Shown here: in pieces, positions 4,433 to 20,667 of the stretch
Numbering within the stretch: the stretch's first letter is position 1
Layout: each line of letters starts with the position of its first letter
NCBI GenBank assembly: GCA_021650915.1
Contig: CP091279.1
Location: 900,001-932,000, forward strand
Direction: 5' to 3'
Length of the DNA stretch: 32,000 nt
Source: Candidatus Brocadia sp.
GTDB taxonomy: Bacteria; Planctomycetota; Brocadiia; Brocadiales; Brocadiaceae
Made by a program: the position numbers and the translations under genes
The notes under the pieces: generated by a model
The model's database searches: none
Seen by the model: the letters and a program-made list of their open reading frames with translations, nothing else
What the model was told of the DNA's origin: nothing

Positions 4433-4505
4433 GCCCGCGTAGCTCAATTGGCGGAGCACGTCATTCGTAATGATGAGGTTGTCGGTTCGACTCCGATCGC
4501 GGGCT
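4433..4505 (+). tRNA. tRNA-Thr (anticodon CGU)
   Basis: Cloverleaf folded by hand. Acceptor GCCCGCG/CGCGGGC; D stem GCTC/GAGC; anticodon stem CGTCA/TGATG with loop TTCGTAA (anticodon CGT); T stem GTCGG/CCGAT with loop TTCGACT; discriminator T; CCA not encoded. Confidence 0.9.
4468..4505 (+). repeat. attL core (38-bp direct repeat, the 3' half of tRNA-Thr)
   Basis: TAATGATGAGGTTGTCGGTTCGACTCCGATCGCGGGCT is identical at 4468-4505 and 20630-20667. Confidence 0.85.
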
Positions 4506-4522
4506 CTTATTTTACAAGGGTT

Positions 4523-5578
4523 TCAAGCCTGTAAGACATTTTTGTTACCCCCGACTGTAGTCAAAACGTAGTCAACTTTTTCCAAAACCTCAATTCCTTT
4601 CCTTAAAGACTCCGGACAATGATGCGCATAACGCTGTGTCATGTGAATATCGCAATGCCCCAGCAGCTTTGATATTTTATAAAGGTCAATTCCTCTTTGT
4701 GCTAATCGTGTTGCGAAGGTATGTCTCAGGTCATGGAAACGAAAGTTTTGTATGCCTGCCTTTTCGTTGACAACGTTAAACGACTTGATAAGGTTTGCAC
4801 GATCAATCTTGGTCATGGCACTGCTGGGAAAAACGAAATCACATTTTAGACTCCTGACCTTCGTTTTCTCCATTAAAATACCAAGGGCAATCTGGTTTAA
4901 TGGAATTGTCCTAGGTTTACCGTTCTTTGTTTCCTGGATAATTATTGTCTTGCGAAAAAGGTCAGCCCTGTCCCATGTAAGCGAAAGCAGTTCGTCTTGA
5001 CGCAACCCGGTATGTAAGGCAAAAACAATTATATCCCTTAGCCATTACGGAGCATTTTCCAGTTGTCTCTTTTCCTCATCTTCTGATAACCAGCGGTCTC
5101 TTTGATTGTTCTCCCTTTCTTTGGGTATCTTCAAGCAAGGGTTTTCCTTTGTCCATTCCCATTGTTTTACCGCCAAACTAAAGGCTTTTTGAAGCATTGC
5201 CAGTTCCTTATTTATCGTTGCTGGTTTCTTGCCCTGATTTATCCTTGATACCTTGTAATCGTTTATTACTTTCGGTGTTATCACCGTCAATTTTGAATCA
5301 CCAAAGAATGATAAAAGATGTTTTGCAGATGTTGTATAACTCTCTTGCATATTCCTGGAAACCTTTGGCGCATGTTCTTTCATAAACCTGTCTGCCATTT
5401 CCCGGAAGGTCTTCTCCGTTCCCTCATACCGGTCAAAGTACTTGCCTTCAATCAGCTCCGTTTTCAATTTAGCTTCAATAGTCTCAGCAAGTTTTTTATT
5501 ATCCGTTTCAAGGCTTCTTTGGATCTTCTTGCCATTATACCGGATGCATGTCCACCAAATTCTGTCACGCTTATACAT
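4523..5578 (-). pseudogene. Tyrosine integrase interrupted by a single in-frame TAA (5045-5047)
   Basis: The two track ORFs (4523-5005 and 5045-5626) are in one frame: ..EEKRQLENAP*WLRDIIVFALHTGLRQDELLSL.. Catalytic motifs: TGLRQDE, HDLRHTFATRL, LLGHCD, QRYAH. Likely start MYKRDRIWW at 5578, behind GGAGGGG. Confidence 0.85.
4553..4576 (+). repeat. Candidate arm-type recombinase-binding repeat (partner at 20462-20485)
   Basis: GACTGTAGTCAAAACGTAGTCAAC versus GACTGTAGTCAAATTGTAGTCAAC: 22/24 identical, same orientation. Each contains two GTAGTCAA units. Confidence 0.45.
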
Positions 5579-5622
5579 ATTCCCCTCCTTTCCCGTGACC
5601 GGATGTGTCTGCATGACCGCTA

Positions 5623-5862
5623 TCAAGCATTATAACCATTTCCGCGAATCTCTCCAATGATCTTATTGGCCGTTCTTTCGCATTGCTGGGTATCGCGTTT
5701 GTTGGCAGCCATTATTTGATCTATTTCTTTCAAGTCAAAAAGGACACGGCGTCTATATTTGATTGATGGTACCTTACCCTGGCTTGCCCATTCGTAGAGT
5801 GTTTTAACTGGCAATGAGGTATATACTGAAAGCTCTTTGATGCTTATATATCTTTTTTCCAT
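5623..5862 (-). CDS. Excisionase/AlpA-type helix-turn-helix DNA-binding protein
   Basis: 79 aa. ISIKELSVYTSLPVKTLYEWASQGKVPSIKYRRRVLFDLKEIDQIM matches the excisionase-family HTH pattern. It lies directly upstream of the integrase. Confidence 0.65.
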   Translation of the reverse strand: MEKRYISIKELSVYTSLPVKTLYEWASQGKVPSIKYRRRVLFDLKEIDQIMAANKRDTQQCERTANKIIGEIRGNGYNA

Positions 5863-5964
5863 AATGATTTTTTGTTACCCAAATCGCTATAAGGTAAGTA
5901 CCCCGCAAAGCCTTTATTTTGCTGTATTGATTTTTTAATTTGGGTAATAAAAGACACTCTTATA

Positions 5965-6249
5965 TTACCCGACATTTGTCGCCTTCTCGCGTCTGTGTTC
6001 TCTAATGATCTGACGTACCCAAGCCGATGTGACGCCATATTTCCCGGCAAGCGCTCCATAATTACCACCCTTAAATTCTTCGATGATCTTCCGCTTTTTT
6101 ACCCTGGCCAGGCAAATATCCAACTTTGGCAAATAGAATTGTTCGCCGCCGAATTCTTTCCCAAGCTTTATGGCATTCTCAATGCCTATTACCTTAGCAA
6201 TTTGTTGATAGTAGGCAGGCAGATCATTCGGACGGATATCATTTTCCAT
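5965..6249 (-). CDS. Mor-like (phage Mu middle-operon regulator family) HTH transcription activator
   Basis: 94 aa. GGEQFYLPKLD..RKIIEEFKGGNYGALAGKYGVTSAWVRQII resembles the Mor family pattern (iYiPk...R...I...F.G.N...LA.kYgls...i..Ii), recalled from memory. Confidence 0.45.
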   Translation of the reverse strand: MENDIRPNDLPAYYQQIAKVIGIENAIKLGKEFGGEQFYLPKLDICLARVKKRKIIEEFKGGNYGALAGKYGVTSAWVRQIIREHRREKATNVG

Positions 6250-6901
6250 CAGTCTTTTCCTCCATCTTCAAATAGGGTTTCGTCTCTTTCACAGAGACAT
6301 ATTTCAGGATAGCTGCTTTTACCTTTTCCGGCGCTTCGATTCCCAGGGCGTGGTCTGATTCCATGAACTTTTTAAAGTCAGCGGTGGTTTTATATTCCGA
6401 CTTCTTTTCAAAGAACATCTCAAACAACGGTCCCAACGGGATTTTTATATCCTCGACTTCATCCTTAACGATATAGGATTCCCGGAACGTGACAACGGCC
6501 CGGGCCGTGATCCCGCCAAGGGTAACGGTTGTTGTTTCTTCCCTCCTATCCCTGGCAATCTCAATAATGCGTTCCTGAATGCTGTCAAGTTCTTCATCGA
6601 GATCCTTGATTTTCTTCTTAAGAGACAATCCCCGCTGGAGAAGTTTTTCAATTTCTGCATCCTCAGCCATGACAAGATGTTTCTTCCCGTCAACCTGAAC
6701 CTTTTTAACCTCTTTTACGCCCTTCACTTTTACCTCCCATCTTTCATAAACCACCGAAGATAAACCGTACTCTTTCCCACCTTTTGGAATCAAACAACCC
6801 GAAATATTAAAAGTATGTGTCCGCGCCCCCTTGTGGCGCAAAGCAGCCACAGGTTTATGACATGTGCGCATGCAATATTCACGCATGGAAATTTCTTGCA
6901 T
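6239..6901 (-). CDS. Hypothetical coiled-coil protein (weak Mu Gam-like resemblance)
   Basis: ORF-track frame. An alternative start is GTG at 6727, behind GGGAGGT, giving 162 aa. The coiled coil AEIEKLLQRGLSLKKKIKDLDEELDSIQERIIEIARD is followed by TVTLGGITARAVVTFRESYIV. The Gam-like call is a guess. Confidence 0.5.
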   Translation of the reverse strand: MQEISMREYCMRTCHKPVAALRHKGARTHTFNISGCLIPKGGKEYGLSSVVYERWEVKVKGVKEVKKVQVDGKKHLVMAEDAEIEKLLQRGLSLKKKIKDLDEELDSIQERIIEIARDRREETTTVTLGGITARAVVTFRESYIVKDEVEDIKIPLGPLFEMFFEKKSEYKTTADFKKFMESDHALGIEAPEKVKAAILKYVSVKETKPYLKMEEKTDGK

Positions 6902-6943
6902 GTTAAAACTTCCAAAAGTTTTAACATTCCCACCTTTTGGAAG
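6902..6943 (-). promoter_or_regulatory. Two mutually exclusive 10-bp hairpins in the operon leader
   Basis: GTTAAAACTT (6902-6911) pairs with AAGTTTTAAC (6916-6925). CTTCCAAAAG (6909-6918) pairs with CTTTTGGAAG (6934-6943). The arms overlap. Confidence 0.3.
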
Positions 6944-7254
6944 CAGTCATAACATATTGTAAATAAATAACTAACTGTAGATTCTCGAATTATGCTTACC
7001 ATAAAATATACCTCTCACCGTCATTTTTTCAGGCAAGGCAAAACTGACAGAAAACCCTTATAAATCAAGGGATTCCAGGCATTTTGGCCTTTATGTACAG
7101 GATATAATCTTACTATTATACGAAATCCCTTCAAAAACCCTGTATAGTCAAGCCTTCCCAGCCATGTTAAAATCTTTTCCCTGTTTTTAAACCCTTTCGT
7201 ACTTCCCATCCCGCAAAGCCTGATAATTCTAGCATTTCGCGCCCTCTTGCGAAA

Positions 7255-7911
7255 TCAACCAACATGTGAGTCGTGACCGATCTTTGTCCTTTCTTCAATT
7301 GCCCACCGTAATTTCCTGAGCGCCTTTACTTCAATCTGACGTACCCTTTCTTTTCCCATATTAATTTTCAAACCCACTTCATCCAGGGGAAGATGTTTCC
7401 GGAATCTCAGGTTAATAACCGTTTTTTCCCTCTCACTGAGAATATCCAATAAGCTGCATACCTAGCTATGAAAAGCCGCCTCATCGCTCTGGGGTTCAGT
7501 CGATTCAAGGATCTCCCCTTGTGTCATTTCTGATTCATGCCCGTAGGCCAGTTCATCAAGGGAATCATGCTCACATTGTTTATGATCCTTAATGGCCTTT
7601 ATCACACCTTGCACAATGCTGTTGCCTGCGTAGGTCAGGAATCGAAACCCTTTGTCAGGATCAAAGGTCTTTGCAGCCTTAATAAGCCCCAGGCATCCTT
7701 CGGAAATCATATCCATCAGGGGAAGTCCATGAGACCAGTATTGAAAAACCACCTTAATGACAAATCTCATGTTTGATTCGACAAGTCTGTTTCTTGCTGC
7801 TTCATCACCCATTAGTGATTGCCTGGCAATGGCTAATTCCTCATTGTTGGTAAGTATTGGAATTCTTCCCACATCCTTTTCAAACATCTGCATAAGTTTT
7901 TTTTCTTGCAT
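7255..7911 (-). pseudogene. Sigma-70 family factor interrupted by one in-frame TAG (7462-7464)
   Basis: Region 2: RLVESNMRFVIKVV..DMISEGCLGLIKAAKTFDPDKGFRFLTYA. Then ..EAAFHS*VCSLLDILSEREK.. in the same frame. Region 4: LSEREKTVINLRF..ERVRQIEVKALRKLR. ATG at 7911 behind GGGAGGG. Confidence 0.8.
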
Positions 7912-7920
7912 CCACCCTCC

Positions 7921-7951
7921 CTTTGTGATATAAAATGCCCTTATCACAAAG
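7921..7951. promoter_or_regulatory. Inverted repeat just upstream of the sigma-factor start (possible operator)
   Basis: CTTTGTGATA (7921-7930), 11 nt, TATCACAAAG (7942-7951). Confidence 0.25.
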
Positions 7952-7972
7952 GAAAGTGGCATTTCTTCTCCT

Positions 7973-8004
7973 AAAGCCGTGCACTTGCCAGGGTGCGCGG
8001 CTTT
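7973..8004 (-). other. Hairpin overlapping the stop codon of the 425-aa recombinase (weak terminator candidate)
   Basis: AAAGCCGTGCAC (7973-7984) versus GTGCGCGGCTTT (7993-8004): 11/12 complementary with an 8-nt loop. Only a short T-run follows on the minus strand. Confidence 0.3.
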
Positions 8005-9280
8005 ATTTATTTAGCGGATTACGCATGCCCGGATGATCATCATAACTTTGTGCTGAATGAACGTAAATCATCGTAGTATTGATATCCTGGTGTCCTGCCA
8101 GTTTCTGGATATCCTGTATTGGTACACCTTCATGGGCAAGCATCGTAAAGGCCGTATGCCGCAACGAATGAGCGCTTAATACCTCACCATCCCTTTCAAT
8201 CTTTGCCTTTTTGATGTATCTTTTCACGATGTTTTCCACAGACTTCACGGAAAGCGCCCCTGGCAGCCTGTCCCTTCTTATTACCAGTTTGTGATCCACG
8301 CGGTCATAGATAAAGGGTAAAAATACCGGCAACTCTCCGGTTATCTTTATCCCGTAGCCCTTTACAATATCCATCCAGGCATCAAACGCCTGTAATGCCT
8401 TTCCGTTTAGGATAATAGCCGTCTTTGGTCTATTCTGAAATCTCCCCTTCCTGTCCACAATCCAGACCTTTTGTTGTCCCTTTACCCGGTCGTGTTCAAG
8501 GTGTTTATGCCTGAGTCCCGCCGTTTCATTTGCCCGGAGGCCGTACACCAGCATCAAGGCAAGGATTGCATAATCTCGCCTGCCAATCTCTGTTTTTCGA
8601 TCTGGTTGATTCAATAACCGTTGTGCCTCCGACACAGAAAGAACGGTATAGTACCCCTTATCCTTCTTCGGGAAGATTAAAGTCAGTTCCTTAAATACGA
8701 TAGGATTCCTGAACTTCCTGTTTTCCCTCTCGATATACTTAAAGAACCGGTTTAGGGATATAAACCGATTCCAGATCGTGGTATCCCGGTAAGAATTCTC
8801 ACGGAGATAGTCCCGGTATGCAAGGATATCCTGTTTTGTTATCTCGCATAAATCCTTGTTTATCCAGGCGAAGAATAGCTTGATAAGGTTCTCATAGCTC
8901 TTTTTGATATTCGGTGTGTTCTGGGTAGCAAGGAATTTGTCAAGACAAACCAACAAATCTTCGTCTTTTACGCCGGTATGTGTCTTAAACTCCTTCAGGG
9001 TGATAATAGGGTTCCGGAACGCTCCGGATGCCTCCAAATGCTTAAAAAAGCCATTGAGTATGGAAAACTTCCTTTTCGTGGTCTTTGGTGAATGTTCCCA
9101 GGAAAGTCTTTCCTGATATGCATGGAGAACTTCTTTCGTGATATCAGAAATTCCCTTTAAATTCTTAAAATCAAAAAACTGCTGTATCTCAGACCGGTAC
9201 ACCCTTTGGCTGCTACCGTTAACCTTTTTCAAATATTGGTTGAAAAGCCTTTTGCCACTGTCTGTATCAAGAAATGACAT
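8003..9280 (-). CDS. Tyrosine recombinase/integrase with extended (duplicated SAM-like) N-terminal region
   Basis: 425 aa. The C-terminal catalytic domain has GLRANE, HSLRHTAFTML, LAGHQD, TTMIYVH. The start is coupled to the upstream gene (TAA-c-ATG at 9284-9278). Confidence 0.85.
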   Translation of the reverse strand: MSFLDTDSGKRLFNQYLKKVNGSSQRVYRSEIQQFFDFKNLKGISDITKEVLHAYQERLSWEHSPKTTKRKFSILNGFFKHLEASGAFRNPIITLKEFKTHTGVKDEDLLVCLDKFLATQNTPNIKKSYENLIKLFFAWINKDLCEITKQDILAYRDYLRENSYRDTTIWNRFISLNRFFKYIERENRKFRNPIVFKELTLIFPKKDKGYYTVLSVSEAQRLLNQPDRKTEIGRRDYAILALMLVYGLRANETAGLRHKHLEHDRVKGQQKVWIVDRKGRFQNRPKTAIILNGKALQAFDAWMDIVKGYGIKITGELPVFLPFIYDRVDHKLVIRRDRLPGALSVKSVENIVKRYIKKAKIERDGEVLSAHSLRHTAFTMLAHEGVPIQDIQKLAGHQDINTTMIYVHSAQSYDDHPGMRNPLNK

Positions 9281-9281
9281 G

Positions 9282-9746
9282 TTAAATCCCTGTAACTAAT
9301 TTCCCTTTTGCGCGTTTTAAGACAGAAATTAAAACCCCCGCCTCATTACCGCCTAACTTAGCAAGGGTATCCTTGTTAAATATCTTGCGGACAAAGTTCA
9401 TAAGATGCTCATCATCCCAGCCCGCTTCTTTTTTAAGATTCTCTATAAGGGATAGTTGGTCTGGTGTTGCCAGGGGTACAAAACGGCCAATTACTTTAGA
9501 ACCCTTTTTTGGTGCCAGAATAGTCCCCCTTACGAAAGGGGGATTCAGGGGGTTGTTTGCTGGAACTCGTACCTTACCCTCAAGGATATCAATCAACTCT
9601 ATACCCCGGCTCTTGGTAAGCTCCTTAGTAGATTCCTGACCAGATACCCACCGAACGAGGTCCCTGACCTGTTCTTCCGCCATCCCTATCTCATGGGCTT
9701 TTGTCCAAATCTTCTTTTTTTGCGCCTGCGTGATCCCTTTTACCAT
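9282..9746 (-). CDS. GemA/Mu gp16-like (DUF1018-like) protein carrying an in-frame repeat insertion
   Basis: 154 aa with two similar halves: ITQAQKKKIWTKAHEIGMAEEQVRDLVRWVSGQESTKELTKSRGIELIDIL and ATPDQLSLIENLKKEAGWDDEHLMNFVRKIF..LGGNEAGVLISVL. The family call is from memory of the pattern. Confidence 0.4.
   Translation of the reverse strand: MVKGITQAQKKKIWTKAHEIGMAEEQVRDLVRWVSGQESTKELTKSRGIELIDILEGKVRVPANNPLNPPFVRGTILAPKKGSKVIGRFVPLATPDQLSLIENLKKEAGWDDEHLMNFVRKIFNKDTLAKLGGNEAGVLISVLKRAKGKLVTGI
9523..9554. repeat. G/C-hairpin repeat element, copy inside the GemA-like CDS
   Basis: GTCCCCCT-TACGAA-AGGGGGATTCAGGGGGTT encodes NNPLNPPFVRGT on the minus strand. Same family as 14803-14831 and 29958-29989. 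Confidence 0.75.
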
Positions 9747-9795
9747 AAAAAATACCTAAGAAATGTGAAATGTTCCTATAGGAAAAATATCAAAA

Positions 9796-9975
9796 ACGTG
9801 TTGCAACGTGTTGTAACCCTTGTAAATACTAGAAAACTACGTGTTGTAATACGTGTTGCATTGCAACACGTTGCAACACGTTTACAACACGTTACAACAC
9901 GTTCACAACACGTTTAAAAACCCGAAAACCATTGATTCTCTGGGCAAACAACACGTGCAACACGTTGCAACACGT
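9796..9975. repeat. Iteron array: 12 copies of CAACACGT phased at 9-11 bp (candidate replication origin or operator array)
   Basis: ACGTGTTG starts at 9796, 9806, 9839 and 9851. CAACACGT starts at 9864, 9874, 9885, 9895, 9906, 9949, 9958 and 9968. The orientation switch forms a palindrome with 10-bp arms at 9851-9871. Confidence 0.7.
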
Positions 9976-9994
9976 TATTTTCAAAGACCCTATA

Positions 9995-12601
9995 TTATTT
10001 GTTTGTAAATTCTGTAATTACATTCCAGGGTATAATTACAAGTCGCTTCCCATCTCTAACGCAGGTAAATTTATCATCTTCCCGTTTGATCCACTCTTTT
10101 TCAGACCATAACCTAAGAACTACCCTTTCAGAGAAATTTTCTTCTCTTAGGGCATTCGCAAGCTCACTTTTGTAAATTCCCAGATATTCAAACTCTTTCC
10201 ACTTGCCAAAAGACTTCGTAGTATTCCCTTTAAAAGAGGCCTCATTAGCGTTTGCCCAGGACAAGATATATTCCATTGCCCTGGTACCGACATCCACATC
10301 GTTCAAAGACTCCCTGATCACGTTTTCAAATACCCGGTCAATGGATTCCCTTGCAGCCACAGGATCACCAACCCCTAAAATTTCATAAACAAGATCGGCT
10401 GCCAACTTGATCACCGCAAAATACTGAGAAATCCTATCGCCTACCTCATTATTTGCCTCTAGAGATAATGTCCTTTTGTATGTTTCATAAGCAATCTGTA
10501 GCTTGGCCGTCTTATCCGTGCTTTCCAAGATAGGCAGGATGCCTTCTACAAATTTAGCCCCGGCATGTCCGTAATTTTTCCTTAACCCCGTTTTAAGGTC
10601 ATTGATAAAATCCGATCCTGCGTTGGGAAATGGTGATCCATATAACGATATCAATCTTGCTACGCCCCCGCCGTCATTAGAGGATTCTGATATAGGACGT
10701 TCGCCGGTACTAAAAACTATTGTATGCCATGATGAAGTGTGGCGGACACCTACGATATTAGCGCGACCTTTAGCACAGCCATTTATAAGCATGTAGATAT
10801 TATTTGATAAAGTAAGTTTACTTACCGTCTGTGAATCATCTGGGAATATGGGCATGTCACAAAAGAAGGTGGCAATCCGTTCTAAAAATGTTCGTGTGGA
10901 GTCCCAGCCGAAGATCAAACCGCCTGCCTCCCTGTGTGGGTTCCCCCATACGCTGGCTGCCAGTTCAAGAACCGTTGTCTTACCAACAGAGGTATTGCCC
11001 CAAAAGTCGACGATGAAGTTCGGCGCTTTTAGTATCCTGAGAAGCGGCGCTGCAAACGATGCATAAAAGGCAAGGTTGGCATAAGGATATTTCAAGGCAT
11101 GTCCTATACACTCCCTCCATTTCGCATATGTTCCCTCTGGCTTTACTGCCTTTACAAACCGCTCAAACCCTGGTTCCGTGAAAAACTCAACGGATACCTC
11201 CTTGTCGCCCTGGACGGCCTTTTTACCCACCATCTTTTCAAGGATAAACACCAGCTTGTCCCCGACAGACTTAAAACCAAAACTTTTGGAAGTGAATGAT
11301 TTTGGGATAAACGACATATTGAACGCCTCGAAGGCTGCCAGATATTCAATCATCTTCCCGCTGTTTCTGCTATTTACCGGCAAGCCGTGATTTGCAAGTT
11401 CAATAATCTTTTTCGCATCAGAGATTAACAGTTTAGATATCCAAATCTTTTTCCACTTATGATCCCTTTTGAAAGTGATCTCAACGTCCTCAATGCCAAA
11501 ATCGATGTCTAGCGCCCGCCCGGTAATGAAAAGAGGGGTATAGAATGCTGGCTTTTGGATTTGCTTGTTTTCATAGTAGATTATCTGTTCAACACGGTCA
11601 TGGTAAACCTTGAATCCCGCTGGTTCAATAAATCTTACCCCATCAATCTCCTGTAAATCGCAAGCAATCTCTTTCGCGCTATAAAGGAATCCCTGAAAAT
11701 CTTCCCTTCTTTTCTTCAGGGCAACAAAGAAATCCGTTACGTCCTTTCGTTCTTTTGAGTCCATGTATGACGGCCATTGAATTACCTTCACACTCTTGGC
11801 CACACCCTTAAGATGATTAGCAACATTCGCAGCTCCCTGTTTTCCAGGTTCGTCATTGTCATATGCAATGATCACGTTGAGATTAGTAAAGAGTGAATTC
11901 CATTCCCGCTTCCAGGTGTTAGCCCCGCCGGTGCCTGATACAGCCGGGAAACCCAGTTGATTGAGAAGCAGCGCCTTAAATTCACCCTCAGCAATGATAA
12001 TAAAGGGGAGATCCTCCTGGATAATGTTAGCAGGGTACAAAGATACTTTAGCTCCTTTGCTTTGCTGTCCCTTATGCTCCTTAAGTGTCCACTTACCCGG
12101 CTCTGTCTCTATCGGGATAACGTAACGCTCGTTCTGATAACCGGTGCGGTACTTTTCTGTCGTCTCCCTGGATAGACCATATTTATCCTGGAAGGTCTTT
12201 AATACCGCCTCGTTTTTTAGCAATTGGTTATGGATGAGTTTTACCTGGTCAAAGGTGAGATGCGCGGATTTTGGATTCCCGCTTCTAGGTTTCGGTTTCT
12301 CTTCTGAATCTGATGCAGGGGAGGAGTCTATCCCTTCCTCAGCCAAAATCTTCTTAATAGCGCCTTTCTTATCCAGCCCATACCGCAGCTGAAGAAATTT
12401 AATTACGCCTCCTTTCGCACCACACCCGAAGCAATGAAAACCACCCCGTTCCAAGTTAACTTTAAGGGAGGGAGTCTTTTCGTGATGGAAAACACATAGA
12501 CATTCAACCTCCGTTTTCCCATTCGCTTCAAACCCCGGTATATGTCTTGAATAAAAACTTCTGTAATCCATCCTGCGTAATACATCTGTAGTATTATCCA
12601 T
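9995..12601 (-). CDS. Bifunctional DNA primase / P-loop helicase (P4-alpha / DUF927-type replicase)
   Basis: CHC2 zinc finger: CLCVFHHEKTPSLKV..FHCFGCGAKGG. Toprim-like: IIAEGEFKALLL..AYDNDEPGKQGA. Walker A: GNTSVGKTT. ATG at 12601 behind AGAGG; the track starts at TTG 12607. Confidence 0.85.
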   Translation of the reverse strand: MDNTTDVLRRMDYRSFYSRHIPGFEANGKTEVECLCVFHHEKTPSLKVNLERGGFHCFGCGAKGGVIKFLQLRYGLDKKGAIKKILAEEGIDSSPASDSEEKPKPRSGNPKSAHLTFDQVKLIHNQLLKNEAVLKTFQDKYGLSRETTEKYRTGYQNERYVIPIETEPGKWTLKEHKGQQSKGAKVSLYPANIIQEDLPFIIIAEGEFKALLLNQLGFPAVSGTGGANTWKREWNSLFTNLNVIIAYDNDEPGKQGAANVANHLKGVAKSVKVIQWPSYMDSKERKDVTDFFVALKKRREDFQGFLYSAKEIACDLQEIDGVRFIEPAGFKVYHDRVEQIIYYENKQIQKPAFYTPLFITGRALDIDFGIEDVEITFKRDHKWKKIWISKLLISDAKKIIELANHGLPVNSRNSGKMIEYLAAFEAFNMSFIPKSFTSKSFGFKSVGDKLVFILEKMVGKKAVQGDKEVSVEFFTEPGFERFVKAVKPEGTYAKWRECIGHALKYPYANLAFYASFAAPLLRILKAPNFIVDFWGNTSVGKTTVLELAASVWGNPHREAGGLIFGWDSTRTFLERIATFFCDMPIFPDDSQTVSKLTLSNNIYMLINGCAKGRANIVGVRHTSSWHTIVFSTGERPISESSNDGGGVARLISLYGSPFPNAGSDFINDLKTGLRKNYGHAGAKFVEGILPILESTDKTAKLQIAYETYKRTLSLEANNEVGDRISQYFAVIKLAADLVYEILGVGDPVAARESIDRVFENVIRESLNDVDVGTRAMEYILSWANANEASFKGNTTKSFGKWKEFEYLGIYKSELANALREENFSERVVLRLWSEKEWIKREDDKFTCVRDGKRLVIIPWNVITEFTNK

Positions 12602-12622
12602 TTTCAACCTCTAAAAACTCCT

Positions 12623-14509: not shown

Positions 14510-15115
14510 TTACAAAGCAAACTGTAACCTTGCAATGGCATCCATCTTCTTTTCATCCGATGTGTGCAGATACTTCTCTGTCGTGCGTATATGACTATGC
14601 CCTAAAAGCTCCTGGACGGTCTTCAGGTCAACCCCCTTATCCAGGAGTGTAGTAGCAAAGGTATGCCTGGTGGTATGTGGAGTAATCCTTTTGGCAATTA
14701 AGGCAACCTTCTTCACCCGCCGTAAGAGGCAATCCACCGCCTTATGGGTAAGCGGCCTCACGTCACAATTCCCGTGCTCCCCCAAGGTGTAAAATAAAAA
14801 TTGTCCCCCTTCGGAGGGGGTTAGGGGGAGGAGCGCCTTCCGATAATCCAGGACGGCCTCCATCACGTCCCTATCCAACGCAATGCGCCTGCGTTTCTCC
14901 CCCTTGCCCATCACATCAACCACCGGTTGATTCCGGTACGTGGTAATATCTGCAACGCTAAGACTGCACACCTCTGCCTTTCTCAACCCAGTGGAGAACA
15001 TGAGGAGTAATAGGGCATAATCCCGCTTACCCTGTAACGTCCTTCTGTCCGGCACCCGGAGTGCCGCGCAAATCTCATCCTCAGTCAAAAACTCTGACAC
15101 CCTTTTTGGCTTCAT
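14510..15115 (-). CDS. Short tyrosine recombinase (XerC/D-like catalytic domain only)
   Basis: 201 aa. Motifs: GLRKAEV, GKGEKRRRI, PHTTRHTFATTL, LLGHSH, EKYLH. RBS: GAAGGAGGTGAAACGATC-ATG. Confidence 0.8.
   Translation of the reverse strand: MKPKRVSEFLTEDEICAALRVPDRRTLQGKRDYALLLLMFSTGLRKAEVCSLSVADITTYRNQPVVDVMGKGEKRRRIALDRDVMEAVLDYRKALLPLTPSEGGQFLFYTLGEHGNCDVRPLTHKAVDCLLRRVKKVALIAKRITPHTTRHTFATTLLDKGVDLKTVQELLGHSHIRTTEKYLHTSDEKKMDAIARLQFAL
14803..14831. repeat. G/C-hairpin repeat element, copy inside the short recombinase CDS
   Basis: GTCCCCCT-TCGG-AGGGGGTTAGGGGGAGG encodes LLPLTPSEGGQF on the minus strand. Confidence 0.75.
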
Positions 15116-15176: not shown

Positions 15177-15211
15177 AGATATATATGATATATTATATAT
15201 CATATATATCT
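15177..15211. repeat. 35-bp perfect AT-rich palindrome between divergent recombinase and RHH genes
   Basis: AGATATATATGATATAT-T-ATATATCATATATATCT: 17-bp arms around one central T. Confidence 0.9.
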
Positions 15212-15236: not shown

Positions 15237-15265
15237 TTGACAGTATTTTTTATATCTGTTATTAT
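15237..15265 (+). promoter_or_regulatory. Near-consensus promoter of the RHH gene
   Basis: TTGACA (15237-15242), 17 nt, TATTAT (15260-15265), then AAGGAG and ATG at 15290. Confidence 0.5.
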
Positions 15266-15289: not shown

Positions 15290-15454
15290 ATGACAGATAC
15301 TGAAAGAATTATTCTTAATATCCCTAAAGAGATGCTTGAACGGATAGACGATTTCAGGCGTAAACAGGAAGTTATTCCATCAAGGGCCGCAGCAATCAGA
15401 CATCTTTTAGAGAAGTCTTTAGGCACTTCCAAAAAAGAGACCTCAAAGAAATAA
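15290..15454 (+). CDS. Ribbon-helix-helix (CopG/Arc/MetJ-type) DNA-binding protein, 54 aa
   Basis: Own translation (below the ORF-track size cutoff): MTDTERIILNIPKEMLERIDDFRRKQEVIPSRAAAIRHLLEKSLGTSKKETSKK. The beta-strand / helix / helix pattern is typical of RHH proteins. Good RBS. Confidence 0.65.
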   Translation: MTDTERIILNIPKEMLERIDDFRRKQEVIPSRAAAIRHLLEKSLGTSKKETSKK

Positions 15455-15639
15455 TGGACTCTGGGAACGTATATGACAAGGGGGAACGCCCCGCCTAGCG
15501 GTCATATGCAGGCCGTAATGCGCTCCGCTTCGGCCATCGTTCCAGCCCTCTAACTTCTATAATCAACTTATAAAAATCCAGTTTCTTCTACCGCAATGGA
15601 AGCATTAATCGGATTAATAGTCATAATCATAGCAGTATG

Positions 15640-17358
15640 GTAACTATTCAGCGTAATATCGCCCCCTATCGTTACGAGCTGGCAAAATCAGGCAATTTGC
15701 CGCGAAATACCATCCGTAATGCCTGACTTAAATTTACCCCTTGTTTTCGACAAGTCGAGAGATAACTACGGATGAGGCAGAAGATCTTCGCTCCGTCCAG
15801 AGAACGAAAACAGCCCGATATCTTCTGCTGAACCTTCGTCATCCTGATATCGTTTTCGGCCAGGTTATTCGTGAAGGGGACGTTTTTATTGTCCATAAAT
15901 CTGAGCACATCACCCTCATACTCCCGTAATCGTTCCAGGAGATTCCGTGCTTTTGTCCTTTTTACCCGCCCTCTTTTCCCCTTACGGTTCGTTTCATCAG
16001 GGGGCGGGCTTTCAGCTTCTGCGTTTTGCAATATCCCCCGGTACCTTTGCCGGTATTTCTCAGACTCGCCGTTTTCCAACAAACCCCCCGCATCCTTTAC
16101 CGCACGGTTTATCTCTTCGAGCAGGGCTTTCATCTCTTTCGCCCACGGTTGCTTCTTATCCTCTTCCCACACCCCCTCCAATTCCCTCAGGTGGTGTGCA
16201 TTACAGAGCGCATGTGTACAGCGGGTGTAGGTGTAATACGCCTTCAAATGGTCGTGACAAAGAATCCCCCGAAACTGGGGCAGTATCCCGATACTATCCA
16301 TCGCTTCCGTCCCACGTCTTTCGTGAGGGAAAAAGTGTGTCCACAAACTATTGGATGCACTATGCAGCCAATACCTGTCTCCGTTCTTGTTGATGCTCGT
16401 TTCATCTGCCTGCAATACCTCTGATTTGACAAGTTCTTCCTTGGTTTTCCCCTCGAAGGCTTCCAGAGATTCGTAGGCATCCTTGTTAAAGTTGTAAAGA
16501 GAGCCTTCGCTCAGCGGTATCCCCATCTGCTCCTCAAAATACTCCTGGATCCTCTTATAGGGTATCAATTGATACTGTGACATATATACTGCGTGCGCTT
16601 TCAAATCCGGCCCATACTGCACTGCCTTTGTCACCCCTTCCGGAAATGACGCTACAAACCTACTTCCCTCCGCATCCTCAACTATCTCTGCCCGATACTC
16701 CGTTACCACCCTTGAAATCTTCATATCAAACACCTGACGCGACTCATAACCGATCAACCTGTATTTGCCGCTCGGATACTTCCTCCGGTCTACTTTTATT
16801 ACTTCCACCTTATCAGGATTGGCTACCTTTTTCAGCGTTACTCCATCATGACCCTCTTGCCCACCTGCCTTCCTCTCTCCTTTCGCCCTGCTCTTTCTCG
16901 TGCGATTCGGATCGCTTGCGGGCGGCTTACTACTGTTGCGACTGTTCCGGTTCAGACGTCCTACCAGCAGCGTTATCACTAACACCAACAACTCTATCAT
17001 TGACCTTATGGCAGGTGACAGACCTTTTTCCTCTGAAAGCAGCTTTTCTACTTTCCGCAGCGTTGCATCTATATCTATATTCTCTATCGTCAATGGATGG
17101 CACCGGTATTAATAGCCTGAAATCATCTCCTGCGGCTATTATACCACAGGCTTTTTCACCCATTTTTTTCACCCTCTACCGCCCTACAAAACTCTGTAAT
17201 TCTCTGGCCGAACATACCCCACACCTCTCTTTGCAAAAACCTCCGATGGGCTACAGTGGCATCCTCCACAGCCATTTATTCTACCAACCAATTCTACGGC
17301 CCCCTTTTCTCATGTTGACTGTCAACTAAATTCTAAAATATTTTCGCTGAATAGTTAC
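15640..17358 (-). mobile_element. IS66-family insertion sequence (single-ORF, ISBst12-like type), 1719 bp
   Basis: 14-bp perfect terminal inverted repeats: GTAACTATTCAGCG (15640-15653) and its reverse complement (17345-17358). They are flanked by the 8-bp direct duplication GCAGTATG (15632-15639 and 17359-17366). Confidence 0.9.
15672..17093 (-). CDS. IS66-family transposase
   Basis: 473 aa. Motifs I associate with IS66 TnpC: NSSKPPASDP, CNAHHLREL, PFTNNLAENDIRMTKVQQKISGCFRS..GAKIFC.IRSYLSTCRKQG. Confidence 0.9.
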   Translation of the reverse strand: MTIENIDIDATLRKVEKLLSEEKGLSPAIRSMIELLVLVITLLVGRLNRNSRNSSKPPASDPNRTRKSRAKGERKAGGQEGHDGVTLKKVANPDKVEVIKVDRRKYPSGKYRLIGYESRQVFDMKISRVVTEYRAEIVEDAEGSRFVASFPEGVTKAVQYGPDLKAHAVYMSQYQLIPYKRIQEYFEEQMGIPLSEGSLYNFNKDAYESLEAFEGKTKEELVKSEVLQADETSINKNGDRYWLHSASNSLWTHFFPHERRGTEAMDSIGILPQFRGILCHDHLKAYYTYTRCTHALCNAHHLRELEGVWEEDKKQPWAKEMKALLEEINRAVKDAGGLLENGESEKYRQRYRGILQNAEAESPPPDETNRKGKRGRVKRTKARNLLERLREYEGDVLRFMDNKNVPFTNNLAENDIRMTKVQQKISGCFRSLDGAKIFCLIRSYLSTCRKQGVNLSQALRMVFRGKLPDFASS

Positions 17359-17634
17359 GCAGTATGTTCCTTTATAAAATATCAGCGTAAAAAGGAAAAA
17401 GAACTTACTCCCTATGAGCGTCAGAAGCAAGTAGAAGAAATGGCGAAAGGGGTTGAAGAACTTATCAGCGAGGTAGTCCAGGAGTCAGACTACGGGAAAA
17501 AACCAACGAAGAAATTGAGCATTTGAAAAATGAAATTAAACAGTTACAAAAAGAGCTGAGTAAGTTTAAAAAGGATGATCATGAGAAGCAAAATATTTGG
17601 TAGAGTAGAAAAAGAGAGACTTGGTTAAAGAAAA

Positions 17635-18955
17635 AGCCCTCCAAATATGGTAAAAAATAGTTTTGATACAAGAAACTAAACCATAAAGAAAAGGAGGGCT
17701 ATATGGGAGCAACCCCATGCACAGATGGTATCACAATAGAATTTGGTTGTCAAATTCGGGTTGAATTAAAGGACGGCAGCCTGGAGTCGATTCTCAAGGC
17801 ATTTTGCAAGATACTGCCGGAGATATTAAGGGATTTTATTCAGAAGATCGTGGTTGGTTTTGGTGAGAGTGCGATGGCGCAATCACGGAAGCCATTTTGC
17901 TGCGACGAATGTGGGAATGACAAGGAGTTTATCTGGAAGACGAGGCATGGAAAAGAGACGAAGATACTGACGGTCTTTCAGTGGTTGAGATTAGAGCAGT
18001 TGCAGGTGCAGTGCAAGAGGTGCGGTCATAAGATGTATATAACGCGAAAGCTTCTGGGGATGGAGCGGATGAAGCGAATACCACCGGAGACGTATCGGAA
18101 GCTTGGGCTGGTAGGATCGTTAACGACCTACCGGGTAGCGAAGAAGATCGTGTCGATGTTTGGCTGGACAGTAGACAAGATGACGATATGGAAATCGGTA
18201 CAAAAGACGGCAGCAGAGATAGATTTTCAACTCGACGAGAAGGGACTTCCCCTGGGAGAAGCAGACGGGACAGGGGTAGGGATTAAGGGGATAGCCAAAC
18301 GAGGCAAGGAACTCAAGGTCTTTGTGCAATACAAGAGCGGTGGAGGGGTGAGAGTGGCAGGGCTTGACATAGGGGATTACAACGGTAGTTGGGATACGCT
18401 GTTTGGTAAGAGTGTTAAGGTGTTCAGGAAGTTTTCCCAGTTTCTTTTGATAACCGATGGAGACACCTCTATTTTGGATAGTTTGAAAGGGAAGATCAAG
18501 GTGCTTGTACAGAGATGTTTGTGGCATATTCCGTATCAGGCAAAGTATGTATTGTGGCAAGATGGGGTCAAGAGCAAGGGGAAAGAATGGCTGGAGGTGA
18601 TGTCGGAGCTTATGGAGGTCTGTGCGATACGGCCATTGGTTGATTGTCAGAAGACCATCGAGAAAATGATAGAGTCCAAGAGGAAACGATTGGATGCGGT
18701 GATTCAGCATTGTTTGTCGAAGGGATATACTCATACCGCATCCTATCTTGAGAATGCCAGGCCTGATATGTTTACGGCGATAGAAAAGAGGCTCAATGGC
18801 AGAACGACAAGTAAAGTAGAGCGCGTCATGCGTACGGTTAACCTGCGGGTGAATGTGAGCAAATGGAGTGTTGCCGGGGCGCTGAACGTTACCAAAATTC
18901 GGCTTGCCTATTACTACAACGGCTTTGATGCGTGACAACTATACATTGGAGGACT
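17635..18955 (+). mobile_element. Possible second IS (boundaries tentative)
   Basis: Imperfect inverted repeats: AGCCCTCCAAATAT (17635-17648) versus the reverse complement of ATACATTGGAGGACT (18941-18955). No target duplication is seen. Confidence 0.3.
17703..18935 (+). CDS. Transposase with N-terminal zinc ribbon (ISLre2/UPF0236-like; family tentative)
   Basis: 410 aa. CCDECG..CKRCGH zinc ribbon. Candidate acidic triad in EADGTGVG, LITDGDTS and TSKVERVMRTVNLR. The C-terminal WS..GA....KIRLAYYYNG is typical of this kind of transposase. RBS: AAGGAGGG. Confidence 0.6.
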   Translation: MGATPCTDGITIEFGCQIRVELKDGSLESILKAFCKILPEILRDFIQKIVVGFGESAMAQSRKPFCCDECGNDKEFIWKTRHGKETKILTVFQWLRLEQLQVQCKRCGHKMYITRKLLGMERMKRIPPETYRKLGLVGSLTTYRVAKKIVSMFGWTVDKMTIWKSVQKTAAEIDFQLDEKGLPLGEADGTGVGIKGIAKRGKELKVFVQYKSGGGVRVAGLDIGDYNGSWDTLFGKSVKVFRKFSQFLLITDGDTSILDSLKGKIKVLVQRCLWHIPYQAKYVLWQDGVKSKGKEWLEVMSELMEVCAIRPLVDCQKTIEKMIESKRKRLDAVIQHCLSKGYTHTASYLENARPDMFTAIEKRLNGRTTSKVERVMRTVNLRVNVSKWSVAGALNVTKIRLAYYYNGFDA

Positions 18956-19006
18956 TTTCTCAGGTCTCCACTTGACAACGCTACTAAATATTTAGGAGAA
19001 TTCATC

Positions 19007-19231
19007 ATGCAAATTAAATTAACAGCAGTCTTCCAAAAGGTACCCGAAGGATACATCGGATTTGTAGAAGAACTACCAGGCGTCAACACACAGGGAGACA
19101 CATTAGAGGAAGCGCGGAGCAACCTGGAAGAGGCAGTACAATTAGTCCTGGATGCTAATAGGCAGTTAGCGGAAGAATCGCTTCAAGGTCAAGACGTGAT
19201 AAAAGAATCGTTCCCCGTTTCAACACCATGA
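19007..19231 (+). CDS. hicB: HicB-family antitoxin
   Basis: 74 aa from ATG 19007 (RBS TAGGAG). FQKVPEGYIGFVEELPGVNTQGDTLEEARSNLEEAV is the HicB/UPF0150 pattern. The ATGA overlap couples it to hicA. Confidence 0.75.
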   Translation: MQIKLTAVFQKVPEGYIGFVEELPGVNTQGDTLEEARSNLEEAVQLVLDANRQLAEESLQGQDVIKESFPVSTP

Positions 19232-19413
19232 AACGCCGTGACCTTATCCGCCATTTAGAAACCCATGGATGTGAATTTTTACGAGAGGGTGGGAATCATA
19301 CCGTGTATGTTAACCGTGCTTTGAAAAAAACCTCAACGGTACCCAAGCATAAAGAGATTAATGAATTCCTCGTTTATAAAATCTGCAAGGATCTCGGGAT
19401 CCCAAAACCGTAA
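19228..19413 (+). CDS. hicA: HicA-family mRNA interferase toxin
   Basis: 61 aa. MKRRDLIRHLETHGCEFLREGGNHTVY...TVPKHKEI matches the HicA (YcfA-like) pattern, including the catalytic-His context GGNHT. Confidence 0.8.
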   Translation: MKRRDLIRHLETHGCEFLREGGNHTVYVNRALKKTSTVPKHKEINEFLVYKICKDLGIPKP

Positions 19414-19607
19414 ATGCAGAATGACAGTAGGAAATTTTCGGCGCTGCCTACGGCGGGCCCGTATAAAAAAAACGGCTCCGATATGAGGGGACGAGGCCGG
19501 CCCTCCATCCTGCGAAATTTAAGGGCCTGCAATAGGAAAGGAGTCCGTTAAAGGTGGTTTGAAGCCTTAAACGATTTTAATCTATCGCAAGCCCTTTTAA
19601 AATGCCT

Positions 19608-20198
19608 CTATTCCACTCCAACGAACTCATTCCAGAGACTTGTCTTGATCGTCTCGCATTCCTTTGAATCTGGTGCAGCTATCGCCCTGAATCTTTCCGG
19701 CAAGTCATTCGGATACAGCATAGGAACATAACGTCCCCCGCTCCTCATGGCAACCCATAAAAAGCTTGCAGTATCGCCAACCGCCTTCTCAAATTTATCC
19801 TGGCATATCACCGCTATCTTATCCCATATATCAGAAGAAACAGCCTTCATTTCCCGCTCTATTTTTGATATGCCGCTTTGTTGTTCTGCAATGACCTCTT
19901 CGCTAAAGCTGGTAAGTTCCAGGGCATCGCTATATTCCTTTGTCATCGCAAGTACTTTCTTCCTTGTGCTGTCCAGTTCTGCCTGGGTAATTTCGTTTTT
20001 AACAAAGCGTTCAATAGCATCTTTCTTAACAACCTCACCCTTTGATGACCGCTCTTCTAATTCCTTGATACTCTGCTTTATCTGCGCCAGTTTAGATTCT
20101 GTATCGGACAGCGTCTTTTGCTCAGCCAGCAATTGGTTTTTTAACTTCTTATACGTTTTAACTTCTTCAATTTCCTTATAAGCGGTTTGTTGTACCAT
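19608..20198 (-). CDS. Hypothetical coiled-coil protein (196 aa)
   Basis: ORF-track frame. The N-terminal two thirds are predicted alpha/coiled coil. I recognise no motif. Confidence 0.5.
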   Translation of the reverse strand: MVQQTAYKEIEEVKTYKKLKNQLLAEQKTLSDTESKLAQIKQSIKELEERSSKGEVVKKDAIERFVKNEITQAELDSTRKKVLAMTKEYSDALELTSFSEEVIAEQQSGISKIEREMKAVSSDIWDKIAVICQDKFEKAVGDTASFLWVAMRSGGRYVPMLYPNDLPERFRAIAAPDSKECETIKTSLWNEFVGVE

Positions 20199-20209
20199 GT
20201 GTTAGACTC

Positions 20210-20431
20210 CTAAATAAAAAATTCTGGGTGCTCTGCCGAAACCTTTAAAAGTGCCCCACCGTAGGTAACGCCCGGATTTTTTCTCATATGCCCCTCGATC
20301 AATACTTCAGCAGTTTTATGTTTATACTCAGTTTCGTCTAGGGGAATATAATGCGTCCTCATACCCGTATCAGCGGCAATAAACTCCAAAAAACGTTCGT
20401 CACCTACTTTAACCGTTCTTTTTGTAGCCAT
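20210..20431 (-). CDS. Hypothetical protein (73 aa)
   Basis: ORF-track frame. Strong RBS: GAAAGGAGGTGTAAAAGAC-ATG. It is the first gene of a two-gene unit next to attR. Confidence 0.5.
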   Translation of the reverse strand: MATKRTVKVGDERFLEFIAADTGMRTHYIPLDETEYKHKTAEVLIEGHMRKNPGVTYGGALLKVSAEHPEFFI

Positions 20432-20461
20432 GTCTTTTACACCTCCTTTCTAAAAAGTTTT

Positions 20462-20485
20462 GACTGTAGTCAAATTGTAGTCAAC
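20462..20485 (+). repeat. Candidate arm-type repeat (partner of 4553-4576)
   Basis: GACTGTAGTCAAATTGTAGTCAAC, about 145 bp inside attR. Confidence 0.45.
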
Positions 20486-20629
20486 TCCATCGAAATGGTT
20501 AGGAATCAACAGGAATAAGCAGGAAATAAATTTTTGTTGCAACTCGTCTAAAAACAACGTATTCTAGGCACAAAAGACACATTTCCGGCCACTTGTAAAA
20601 AATGCTAATAAATACAAAAAGGTCTTTCA

Positions 20630-20667
20630 TAATGATGAGGTTGTCGGTTCGACTCCGATCGCGGGCT
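20630..20667 (+). repeat. attR core (38-bp copy of the tRNA-Thr 3' half)
   Basis: Identical to 4468-4505. The 5' half of the tRNA is absent here. Confidence 0.85.

Follow-up and report, generated by a model that had tools for sequence, protein, structure and literature searches.

A degraded island at a tRNA-Thr gene of Candidatus Brocadia and an apparently undescribed family of integrative elements in anammox bacteria

What kind of mobile element sits beside a tRNA gene with an integrase and a replicase of its own and with no recognisable gene for a particle or for mating? The question is raised by a 32 000-nt stretch of Candidatus Brocadia sp. (GenBank assembly GCA_021650915.1, contig CP091279.1, positions 900 001–932 000; hereafter the window, numbered from its first letter). 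An earlier sequence-only reading had described positions 4468–20667 of it as a tRNA-Thr-integrated element that can replicate but lacks virion and conjugation genes, either satellite-like or resembling an integrative and mobilizable element (IME). The island turns out to belong to a family that is conserved across anammox genera and apparently undescribed; its members can, it appears, integrate and copy themselves, and they carry no particle or mating genes. Literature searches returned no description of such an element in anammox bacteria. On balance, and with a confidence only a little above even, we take the island to be a degraded member of a family of helper-dependent integrative replicons, resembling phage-inducible chromosomal islands (PICIs) and P4 and possibly exploiting Mu-like phages.

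The 16.2 kb between the repeats can be regarded as an insertion because the site is empty or nearly so elsewhere: in nine related genomes of the Brocadia lineage (L031, L033, L035–L040 and L043; related loci are cited by L numbers) the synthase gene, tRNA-Thr and the phosphodiesterase gene are adjacent, with only ~140–430 bp between the tRNA and the phosphodiesterase gene, which in the window lies at 21131. This is the empty site for which a search had been proposed and, together with int1 next to the tRNA, it bears out the integrative-element signature that had been read from the sequence. The elements of the site are as follows.

4433–4506, plus strand: tRNA-Thr(CGT), the integration target, intact after the insertion (ARAGORN; Rfam RF00005, 61.9 bits)
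4468–4505, plus strand: attL core, 38 bp, the 3' half of the tRNA, exact repeat
4553–4586, no strand: putative integrase arm-type site at the left end, a GTAGTCAA doublet, 82% pair with 20462–20495
20462–20495, no strand: putative integrase arm-type site at the right end, paired with 4553–4586
20630–20667, plus strand: attR core, 38 bp, exact repeat

The 38-mer TAATGATGAGGTTGTCGGTTCGACTCCGATCGCGGGCT, which in attL is the final 38 nt of tRNA-Thr before its terminal base, occurs exactly as previously noted, in two exact copies only (4468–4505 and 20630–20667), and none of 100 window shuffles gave a match. The tRNA-Thr is the sole tRNA gene of the window. A doublet of GTAGTCAA is also found near both ends of the related Kuenenia element L111, an arrangement as expected for integrase arm sites, and the two doublets of the island are putatively assigned to this role on their sequence and position. 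From the repeats, the circular attP is predicted to read AAGGTCTTTCA, the 38-bp core and then CTTATTTTACAAG, and the repaired attB to read tRNA-Thr followed by TCACTATTATC. The island had been judged by eye to be AT-richer than its surroundings; it is, modestly so, with a GC content of 0.432 (0.423 when both of its insertion sequences (ISs) are left out) versus 0.482 and 0.472 in the flanks. The tRNA-Thr gene is moreover a hot spot: L032 holds a different element there (integrase 78% identical, HTH_17 54%, primase unrelated), and integrase remnants lie at the same gene in L034, L035 and L042, with a partial second tRNA-Thr copy in L035. Among named organisms, Candidatus Brocadia carolinensis and B. 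sapporoensis have the synthase genes closest to that of the window, and the window is 99.98% identical to contig LAQJ01000044 (GCA_000987375.1); judged from these matches, the host is an anammox planctomycete of the genus Brocadia.

What the island encodes was established by searching every open reading frame (ORF) against Pfam, PHROGs, NCBIfam and PADLOC; in addition, two orphans were modelled with AlphaFold2 (AF2) and the models were used in fold searches. The region 4523–15115 is almost wholly on the minus strand, and the gene order given earlier was reproduced by Pfam, PHROGs and NCBIfam.

4523–5578, minus strand: int1, tyrosine integrase of the att site, a pseudogene (Phage_integrase, 6e-36, plus Int_N/SAM domains)
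5623–5862, minus strand: HTH_17, a helix-turn-helix (HTH) protein of Xis/AlpA type (PF12728, 8.7e-9; phrog_66 'excisionase and transcriptional regulator', 1.4e-9)
5965–6249, minus strand: Mor-family transcription activator (PF08765, 1.5e-17; phrog_836/532 'late transcriptional activator')
6239–6727, minus strand: conserved 162-aa protein (88 homologues of ~160 aa)
7021–7209, minus strand: conserved 62-aa orphan (57–85% identity in relatives; no family match)
7255–7911, minus strand: sigma-70 family factor (r1.2+r2+r4), a pseudogene (Pfam; phrog_351, 6.7e-42)
8003–9280, minus strand: int2, 425-aa tyrosine recombinase with two SAM-like N-terminal domains (Pfam; XerC/D-like below cut-off in NCBIfam)
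9282–9746, minus strand: GemA-like protein (PF06252, 2e-6; phrog_286, 7e-16)
9792–9980, no strand: iteron array, putative origin, directly 3' of the replicase gene (12 × CAACACGT, ~10–11 bp period)
9995–12607, minus strand: primase-helicase of 870 aa with CHC2 zinc finger, Toprim, DUF927 and Cch-type HTH (Pfam; phrog_8841, 4.9e-104; like Cch1 of the staphylococcal cassette chromosome (SCC) in NCBIfam)
12763–12963, minus strand: zinc-ribbon ORF (CxxxxC...CxxC), 66 aa (from its translation; 56% identity to Kuenenia L111, cysteines conserved)
12960–13655, minus strand: MerR-type HTH protein, 231 aa (PF13411, 9.7e-5; 54–59% identity in relatives)
13792–14109, minus strand: 105-aa orphan (53% identity over 87 aa to positions 1163–1648 of the Mu-like contig L154, adjoining a MuB-like gene)
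14096–14365, minus strand: 89-aa orphan (73% identity in L127; no family match)
14510–15115, minus strand: int3, catalytic-domain-only tyrosine recombinase, 201 aa (Phage_integrase, 4.7e-36; 78–83% conserved in the family)
15177–15211, no strand: perfect palindrome with 17-nt arms in the divergent intergenic region between int3 and the next gene, putative operator
15290–15454, plus strand: repressor of ribbon-helix-helix (RHH) type, divergent from the main array (phrog_4738 'transcriptional repressor', 5e-10; 53–54% identity in relatives)
18932–19413, plus strand: HicB-HicA toxin-antitoxin pair (Pfam; PHROGs; 85–89% identity in the Kuenenia element)
19608–20198, minus strand: 196-aa coiled-coil hairpin protein, family-specific (AF2 model, pLDDT (predicted local distance difference test) 87.3)
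20210–20431, minus strand: 73-aa orphan at the attR end (44–60% identity in L111 and L143)

All 12 window copies of CAACACGT fall inside 9796–9975, four pointing one way and eight the other way, against a chance expectation of 0.55. No family match to a capsid, portal, terminase, tail, lysis/holin, relaxase, coupling-protein, FtsK/TraB-like or type IV secretion system (T4SS) gene was obtained for any island ORF with Pfam, PHROGs or NCBIfam, in agreement with what the sequence-only reading had stated of capsid, portal, terminase, tail, lysis, relaxase and T4SS genes. The largest ORFs without assignment encode 231, 196 and 162 aa; a major capsid protein, a portal, a large terminase or a relaxase is improbable among the orphans because they are too small (≤231 aa), and the two modelled orphans gave no capsid or terminase fold. 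PADLOC detected no defence system among the island ORFs, only weak coiled-coil noise.

Several of the small genes could be defined more closely by comparison with their homologues. What had been called a coiled-coil ORF is a real conserved gene, but of 162 aa, since alignment of the homologues places its true start inside the 220-aa ORF. Its AF2 model (pLDDT 85.9) found no PDB match in the fold search and matched uncharacterised caudoviral proteins only weakly, including one that bears the name Siphovirus Gp157. The zinc-ribbon ORF is likewise real, whereas the overlapping 52-aa ORF chosen by gene callers is not conserved. The 196-aa protein has only ~20 representatives among 1.84 billion proteins, and its model gave generic coiled-coil matches only, all with E>0.1; the thought that it might be a counterpart of P4 Sid was dropped, the match (E 0.26) lying amid generic coiled coils. 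For int3, a role as FimB/E-type invertase of a nearby switch was also considered and set aside: invertase models match it weakly, and there are no suitably spaced inverted repeats around nearby segments. A promoter-like TTGACA-17-TATTAT lies at 15237–15265, in the int3/RHH intergenic region. A strong hairpin (7972–8005; 15-pair stem with 7 G–C pairs) stands exactly between the int2 stop and the sigma start, and may be a terminator or attenuator dividing two transcription units.

Is this gene set peculiar to one strain? Elements of the same kind, ~13–16 kb long, were found in Brocadia, Kuenenia and Jettenia, at tRNA-Thr, -Val, -Gln and -Pro genes. The primase-helicase has ~47 near-full-length homologues (41–87% identity, ≥98% coverage); those with names come from Jettenia, Kuenenia and 'Planctomycetes', and some partial or distant ones are labelled Nitrospirae. 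One member is L111 of Kuenenia, a 15.7-kb element between 50-bp repeats of tRNA-Val(TAC), which has 16 genes in common with the window, in the same order and with 42–89% identity (int1 68%, HTH_17 81%, Mor 64%, 162-aa protein 58%, 62-aa orphan 60%, sigma 55%, int2 76%, GemA 47%, primase 64%, MerR-like 54%, 105-aa orphan 45%, int3 78%, RHH 53%, HicB 85%, HicA 89%, 196-aa protein 42%, 73-aa orphan 44%). Other members occupy tRNA-Gln(CTG) (L127) and tRNA-Pro(GGG) (L138/L139, whose Mor protein is named B. sinica by one source), and L143 is a complete contig of 16.1 kb in which the integrase is another one (31% identical). The second and third recombinases are kept even where int1 has been swapped, int2 with 66–86% and int3 with 78–83% identity across the family, int2 being its most conserved protein.

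By this comparison the attR side is for the most part not the cargo end that it had been taken for: RHH, HicBA and the two attR-proximal orphans are part of the 16-gene backbone conserved in Kuenenia, and only the ISs are secondary. True variability is confined to one spot, between the 196-aa gene and RHH, which holds HicBA in the window, ParE, HicBA and a P22-antirepressor-type gene in L111, and TumE/HVO_A0114, a TPR protein and an antirepressor-type gene in L143. At the iteron position, relatives carry different short repeats; element-specific iterons of this kind are what would be expected of an origin co-evolving with its initiator. Between the window and L022, a variant at the same site, identity is ~100% except in the N-terminal half of int2 (83–94%) and from the primase N-terminus rightwards (59–73%), and this mosaic divergence indicates that element variants recombine.

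Some further arrangements were seen around this family. In L127 the iteron-bearing region is duplicated as direct repeats (46–286 and 6423–6606), the block int3-orphan-MerR-primase is opposite in orientation to the block GemA-int2-sigma, and the primase is of another type, a layout that points to module shuffling, possibly recombinase-mediated. The same primase-helicase (56–61% identity) also occurs in other small integrase-bounded islands (L112, L113/L114 and L141, one of them bounded by a 24-bp tRNA-Pro(CGG) repeat) with different accessory genes, among them a D12 methyltransferase, a 589-aa protein matching PhageMin_Tail, and RadC. Homologues of the 162-aa protein at 59–71% identity (P0155, P0190 and P0192) are labelled Thermodesulfovibrionales, Scalindua rubra and Desulfobulbus, the last on a 107-kb contig; such labels reflect either cross-phylum spread or mis-binning of a mobile element.

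The window copy itself is an ordinary decaying island, and its value lies in the family that it reveals. Two of its genes, int1 and the sigma gene, are interrupted by in-frame stops (TAA at 5045–5047 and TAG at 7462–7464, respectively) but otherwise read through in frame. In the relatives the positions are occupied by glutamine codons, CAA in L022 and L111 for int1 and CAG in L022 for sigma; both lesions are therefore C→T nonsense mutations (CAA→TAA and CAG→TAG). Sister strains with an identical synthase gene (L022–L027) have intact int1 (351–367 aa) and sigma (218–235 aa) genes. Assemblies with the intact variant of L022 type include GCA_020846915.1, GCA_029760155.1 and GCA_003577195.1. Since the TAA and TAG alleles recur in contigs from many sequencing runs (L002–L010), they are fixed in the lineage and are not read errors. 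In addition, two ISs have entered the element.

15640–17358, minus strand: IS66-family IS, secondary insertion (transposase NF033517, 2.4e-91; terminal inverted repeats GTAACTATTCAGCG (GTAA...))
17589–18995, plus strand: ISH6-family-like IS, secondary insertion, ends approximate (NF041731, 2.8e-57, below cut-off; imperfect terminal inverted repeats; contigs break at ~18964)

The first is flanked by an 8-bp target duplication, GCAGTATG, at 15632–39 and 17359–66. Both are absent from L111 and L143, and without them the window element measures ~13 kb; another strain's copy (L144) bears an IS within GemA. When the IS66-family element is removed in silico (15455–15639 joined to 17367–17570), the sequence downstream of RHH again reads as an ORF of 67 codons that encodes a single hydrophobic helix and a charged tail, so this insertion broke a small element gene.

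With nonsense mutations in int1 and sigma and two IS insertions, the window copy is very probably recently inactivated, stuck and decaying, and it is probably immobile. The earlier statement that the element can replicate thus needs dividing: replicase and iteron origin are present, but for the window copy replication is doubtful, as is mobility. One might instead suppose that the stops are recoded and that the element, read through a suppressor or an alternative code, is fully functional, since the reading frame of each interrupted gene goes on beyond the stop and its domains are fully covered. We reject this as having a negligible chance of being right: the two stop codons differ, each stands for a glutamine codon in sister copies that are otherwise ~100% identical, the sole tRNA in the window is tRNA-Thr, and the flanking housekeeping genes end at standard stops.

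Where, then, do the regulators of such an element come from? IMG/VR was scanned with a Mor profile and a sigma profile, and two module-bearing viral contigs were found. On the 27-kb contig L154/L158 the order is as follows: a gene related to the 105-aa orphan (53% over 87 aa), genes for a MuB-type transposition protein and a MuA-type transposase, a sigma gene with the same r1.2+r2+r4 regions (47% identity), two Mor genes and tail genes (tail sheath, tape measure and baseplate). The 19-kb contig L159 has MuA, MuB, three GemA-family proteins (phrog_286), a sigma factor (41%) and Mor (36%), together with structural genes for baseplate, tape measure and a head protease-capsid protein. The closest viral relatives of the island sigma, Mor, GemA and 105-aa orphan are thus on contigs of Mu-like transposable phages, beside tail and head genes, and since these genes are found together next to late genes in L154/L159, we regard them as a Mu-like phage module. 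As a separate observation, the Kuenenia locus L111 has across its target tRNA-Val, at 18491–22640, a phage-like early region with a cI-type HTH_3 protein, DUF6948, AAA_24, DUF669 and a weak Mu Gam match; this may be a prophage adjacent to the element and, as such, a possible helper.

On these grounds the following working can be proposed for an intact member. Int1 and the HTH_17 protein of Xis/AlpA type would recombine a core of ~38–50 bp in the 3' half of the tRNA; for this integration step the att repeats, the arm-type repeats and the empty sites give support at the sequence level. The divergent RHH repressor, probably acting at the palindrome at 15177–15211, would keep the one-directional array silent, and on induction the element's own sigma and Mor would run a transcription cascade. 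The primase-helicase, whose gene lies with an iteron array directly at its 3' side, would fire at that array and replicate the circle. Because int2 and int3 keep 66–86% identity even when int1 is swapped, they may serve an element-internal job, for instance multimer resolution of the circular replicon, while HicBA and the other toxin-antitoxin pairs of the variable spot would stabilise the element. Transfer of the element, which we infer, must be borrowed because it encodes nothing for particles or mating. The most likely helper would be a Mu-like transposable phage, since sigma, GemA, Mor and the 105-aa orphan have their homologues in a Mu-like module beside late genes; sigma and Mor of the element would then trans-activate the late genes of this helper, by the logic of P4 delta and P2 Ogr.

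A bolder form of this proposal is that intact members represent a novel type of satellite, living at the expense of Mu-like transposable phages of anammox bacteria and neighbouring anaerobes. We put it forward tentatively and hold it to be rather doubtful, and no less tentative is its detail, by which the satellite's own sigma, Mor and GemA would switch on the late genes of the helper while it relies on its own iteron origin and on two dedicated extra recombinases. Our literature search found no described satellite of a transposable phage, and to our knowledge there is none.

A number of results weigh against dependence on a phage helper. None of the anammox genomes yielded a helper phage, and a search for Mor homologues, made at word-index sensitivity, returned family members only and revealed none directly. 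No terS, capsid-remodelling, pac or cos feature was found in the island, although no search aimed at cos was made. The Mu-like contigs have 53–57% GC, unlike Brocadia, so that they are not Brocadia phages themselves, and their identity to the island proteins is only 36–53%. If the bins are right, the Thermodesulfovibrionales and Desulfobulbus labels would imply more widely spread hosts than is usual for a phage satellite. The predicted circular attP junction (right end, core, left end), whose detection had been suggested as a check, had no exact match in JGI metagenome contigs; Logan contigs end at the att core and so cannot separate attP from attL or attR. To these come the absence of family relatives from IMG/VR, when it was scanned with the primase as a single sequence, the 162-aa family or int2 (the primase profile retrieved only DUF927 helicases at 36%), and the occurrence of this replicase type on small plasmids as well as on phages.

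The last two points also speak for an integrative plasmid-like element, 'cryptic integrated', that would alternate between chromosome and episome, would spread vertically or by a non-phage route such as natural transformation or vesicles, and would use its phage-type regulators for its own expression only. Such an element would have its own replicase and iterons and toxin-antitoxin pairs in a variable spot, the two extra Xer-like recombinases would suit multimer resolution, the small plasmids with this type of replicase are non-mobilizable, and satellites of this gene content are reported, in a 2026 paper (PMC13376191), to be moved by natural competence. We nevertheless consider it unlikely: four regulators and orphans are common to Mu-like phages, genes of Xis/AlpA, Mor, GemA and P22-antirepressor type are typical of phage-interacting elements, and no partition genes were found. 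The IME alternative raised in the earlier note, in which a conjugative mating apparatus would be borrowed through a cryptic oriT, agrees with a small, tRNA-integrated element without T4SS genes, but it is highly improbable in view of the lack of any relaxase, coupling-protein or FtsK/TraB-like translocase match in any ORF, the phage type of all recognisable regulators and the absence of a conjugative element from every related locus seen. Of 'satellite or IME-like', then, the second half finds no support, whereas the first, though still inferential, gains from the module on the Mu-like contigs. It is barely credible, finally, that the island descends from a complete, for example Mu-like, prophage and was stripped of its structural genes. 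Mor, GemA and sigma are common to Mu-like phages and the window copy is visibly decaying, but random decay would not yield an att-bounded layout of 16 genes in ~13–16 kb that is kept between genera with open frames; nor does the island have a MuA/MuB transposase, and its integration is site-specific at tRNAs, not transpositional.

The surroundings of the island deserve a brief description. On the left lies the DAHP_synth_1-family synthase (272 aa from its real start within a 278-aa ORF), and on the right are genes for the phosphodiesterase, DnaJ, a class-V aminotransferase, an isocitrate/isopropylmalate dehydrogenase, a B12-radical-SAM enzyme and a hybrid histidine kinase. Just outside attR, at 20883–21105, there is a dispersed ~225-bp repeat, copies of which (82–93% identity) are found at unrelated spots in the Brocadia loci L011–L014, L022–L027 and L144; because of it, the tRNA copy and the phosphodiesterase gene are ~350 bp further apart than at the empty sites. 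Compared with window positions 23813–32000, the right flank is rearranged in L011 (GCA_021463075.1, a 3.25-Mb contig, 99.8–99.98% identical), where the aminotransferase and DnaJ genes are separated by the histidine-kinase segment, accompanied by extra alcohol dehydrogenase (ADH) and ABC-transporter genes, a case of strain-level structural variation beside the island. Further to the left, a riboswitch of the cyclic di-GMP class (c-di-GMP-I-GGC) is located at 2529–2640 on the minus strand (Rfam RF03167, 61.4 bits; gathering score 59). Directly downstream of it an open frame of at least 834 codons (1 to ~2500, minus strand), with repeated 'SGNGNHG' motifs, runs past the left edge of the window; in the related locus L144 the same gene is annotated as a 971-aa Laminin_G_3/Big_5 protein, and it is probably a c-di-GMP-controlled surface or adhesin gene.

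Anammox bacteria grow slowly, are responsible for much of the nitrogen lost worldwide and serve in wastewater treatment, and we know of no genetic system for them. The family offers a native replicon, consisting of a primase-helicase with mapped iterons, and native site-specific integrases with att cores mapped in tRNA-Thr, -Val, -Gln and -Pro, which together are raw material for shuttle or integration vectors. If the satellite reading is true, this would be, as far as we know, the first defined replicon-plus-integrase system for anammox bacteria. The family also extends small, capsid-less, self-replicating 'hitcher' islands to the Planctomycetota. Its equipment is unusual, comprising a sigma factor, Mor and GemA of its own as well as three conserved tyrosine recombinases, and it suggests that Mu-like phages could be the class of helpers.

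How does the island compare with systems already known? No described satellite family with its layout was found, as the sequence-only reading had surmised, and the elements closest to it can each be set apart. Unlike integrative and conjugative elements (ICEs) and IMEs, the island has no MOB, T4SS, type IV coupling protein (T4CP) or FtsK/TraB-like match, and unlike a prophage it has no head, tail, terminase, lysis or MuA/MuB genes, whereas head/tail and MuA/MuB genes are present in L154/L159. With the middle/late regulatory region of Mu-like phages it shares the Mor and GemA families, sigma and the 105-aa orphan (L154, L159), but it lacks transposase, head, tail and lysis genes, integrates site-specifically and would replicate from an iteron origin. 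Recombinase-in-trio (RIT) elements hold three tyrosine recombinase genes side by side in a single operon, with inverted repeats on either side; the three genes of the island are dispersed (4523, 8003 and 14510), and the island is bounded by direct att repeats.

Tycheposons are tyrosine-recombinase elements of Prochlorococcus flanked by a full and a partial tRNA (bioRxiv 10.1101/2020.12.28.424599). The island likewise is a tRNA-flanked tyrosine-recombinase element with an excisionase and a primase/helicase, without capsid or conjugation machinery, and with many degenerate remnants at the same tRNA hot spots. However, tycheposons are defined by their own hallmark profiles in marine cyanobacteria, the island being likened to them by description only; a sigma/Mor/GemA module and a recombinase trio are not described there, and the anammox elements carry little metabolic cargo.

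P4 is similarly tRNA-integrated, ~12 kb long and plasmid-like in its replication, with a fused primase-helicase acting on iterons. In the replicons of P4, and also in those of PICIs and of the Staphylococcus aureus pathogenicity islands (SaPIs), the origin lies directly 3' of the primase/replicase gene. P4 delta is a homologue of Ogr, the late-gene activator of the helper P2, and it is this logic of an activator homologue that is proposed here for the island sigma and Mor. The differences are that family searches found no sid, psu, delta or epsilon homologue in the island (the Sid fold match mentioned above is not significant), that its helicase is of another family (DUF927/Cch-type) and that the presumed helper is Mu-like.

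The island also resembles PICIs and SaPIs. Common to both are a size of 10–20 kb, site-specific integration with an att repeat by an integrase beside a defined att site (here a pseudogene), a primase-replicase with an iteron origin directly at its 3' side, a repressor divergent from the main operon, the lack of tail and holin genes, and a variable accessory spot with toxin-antitoxin genes; to the AlpA/Stl-type regulator of PICIs may correspond an Xis/AlpA-type HTH protein (HTH_17, phrog_66) and the RHH repressor. SatelliteFinder would call an element with only int, AlpA and primase/replicase a 'Type C PICI', a class that its authors deem ambiguous (PMC10085698). We do not file the island as a PICI because the packaging and hijack genes were searched for and not found: Pfam, PHROGs and NCBIfam detected no terS, ppi, rpp, cpm or capsid homologue. 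Its integrase, moreover, stands at the end of a single co-directional array, its host phylum is Planctomycetota and its dependence on a helper is presumed, and it has its own sigma, Mor and GemA and two further tyrosine recombinases. It is this sigma/Mor/GemA module, together with the three tyrosine recombinases, that sets the island apart from PICIs, P4 and tycheposons alike.

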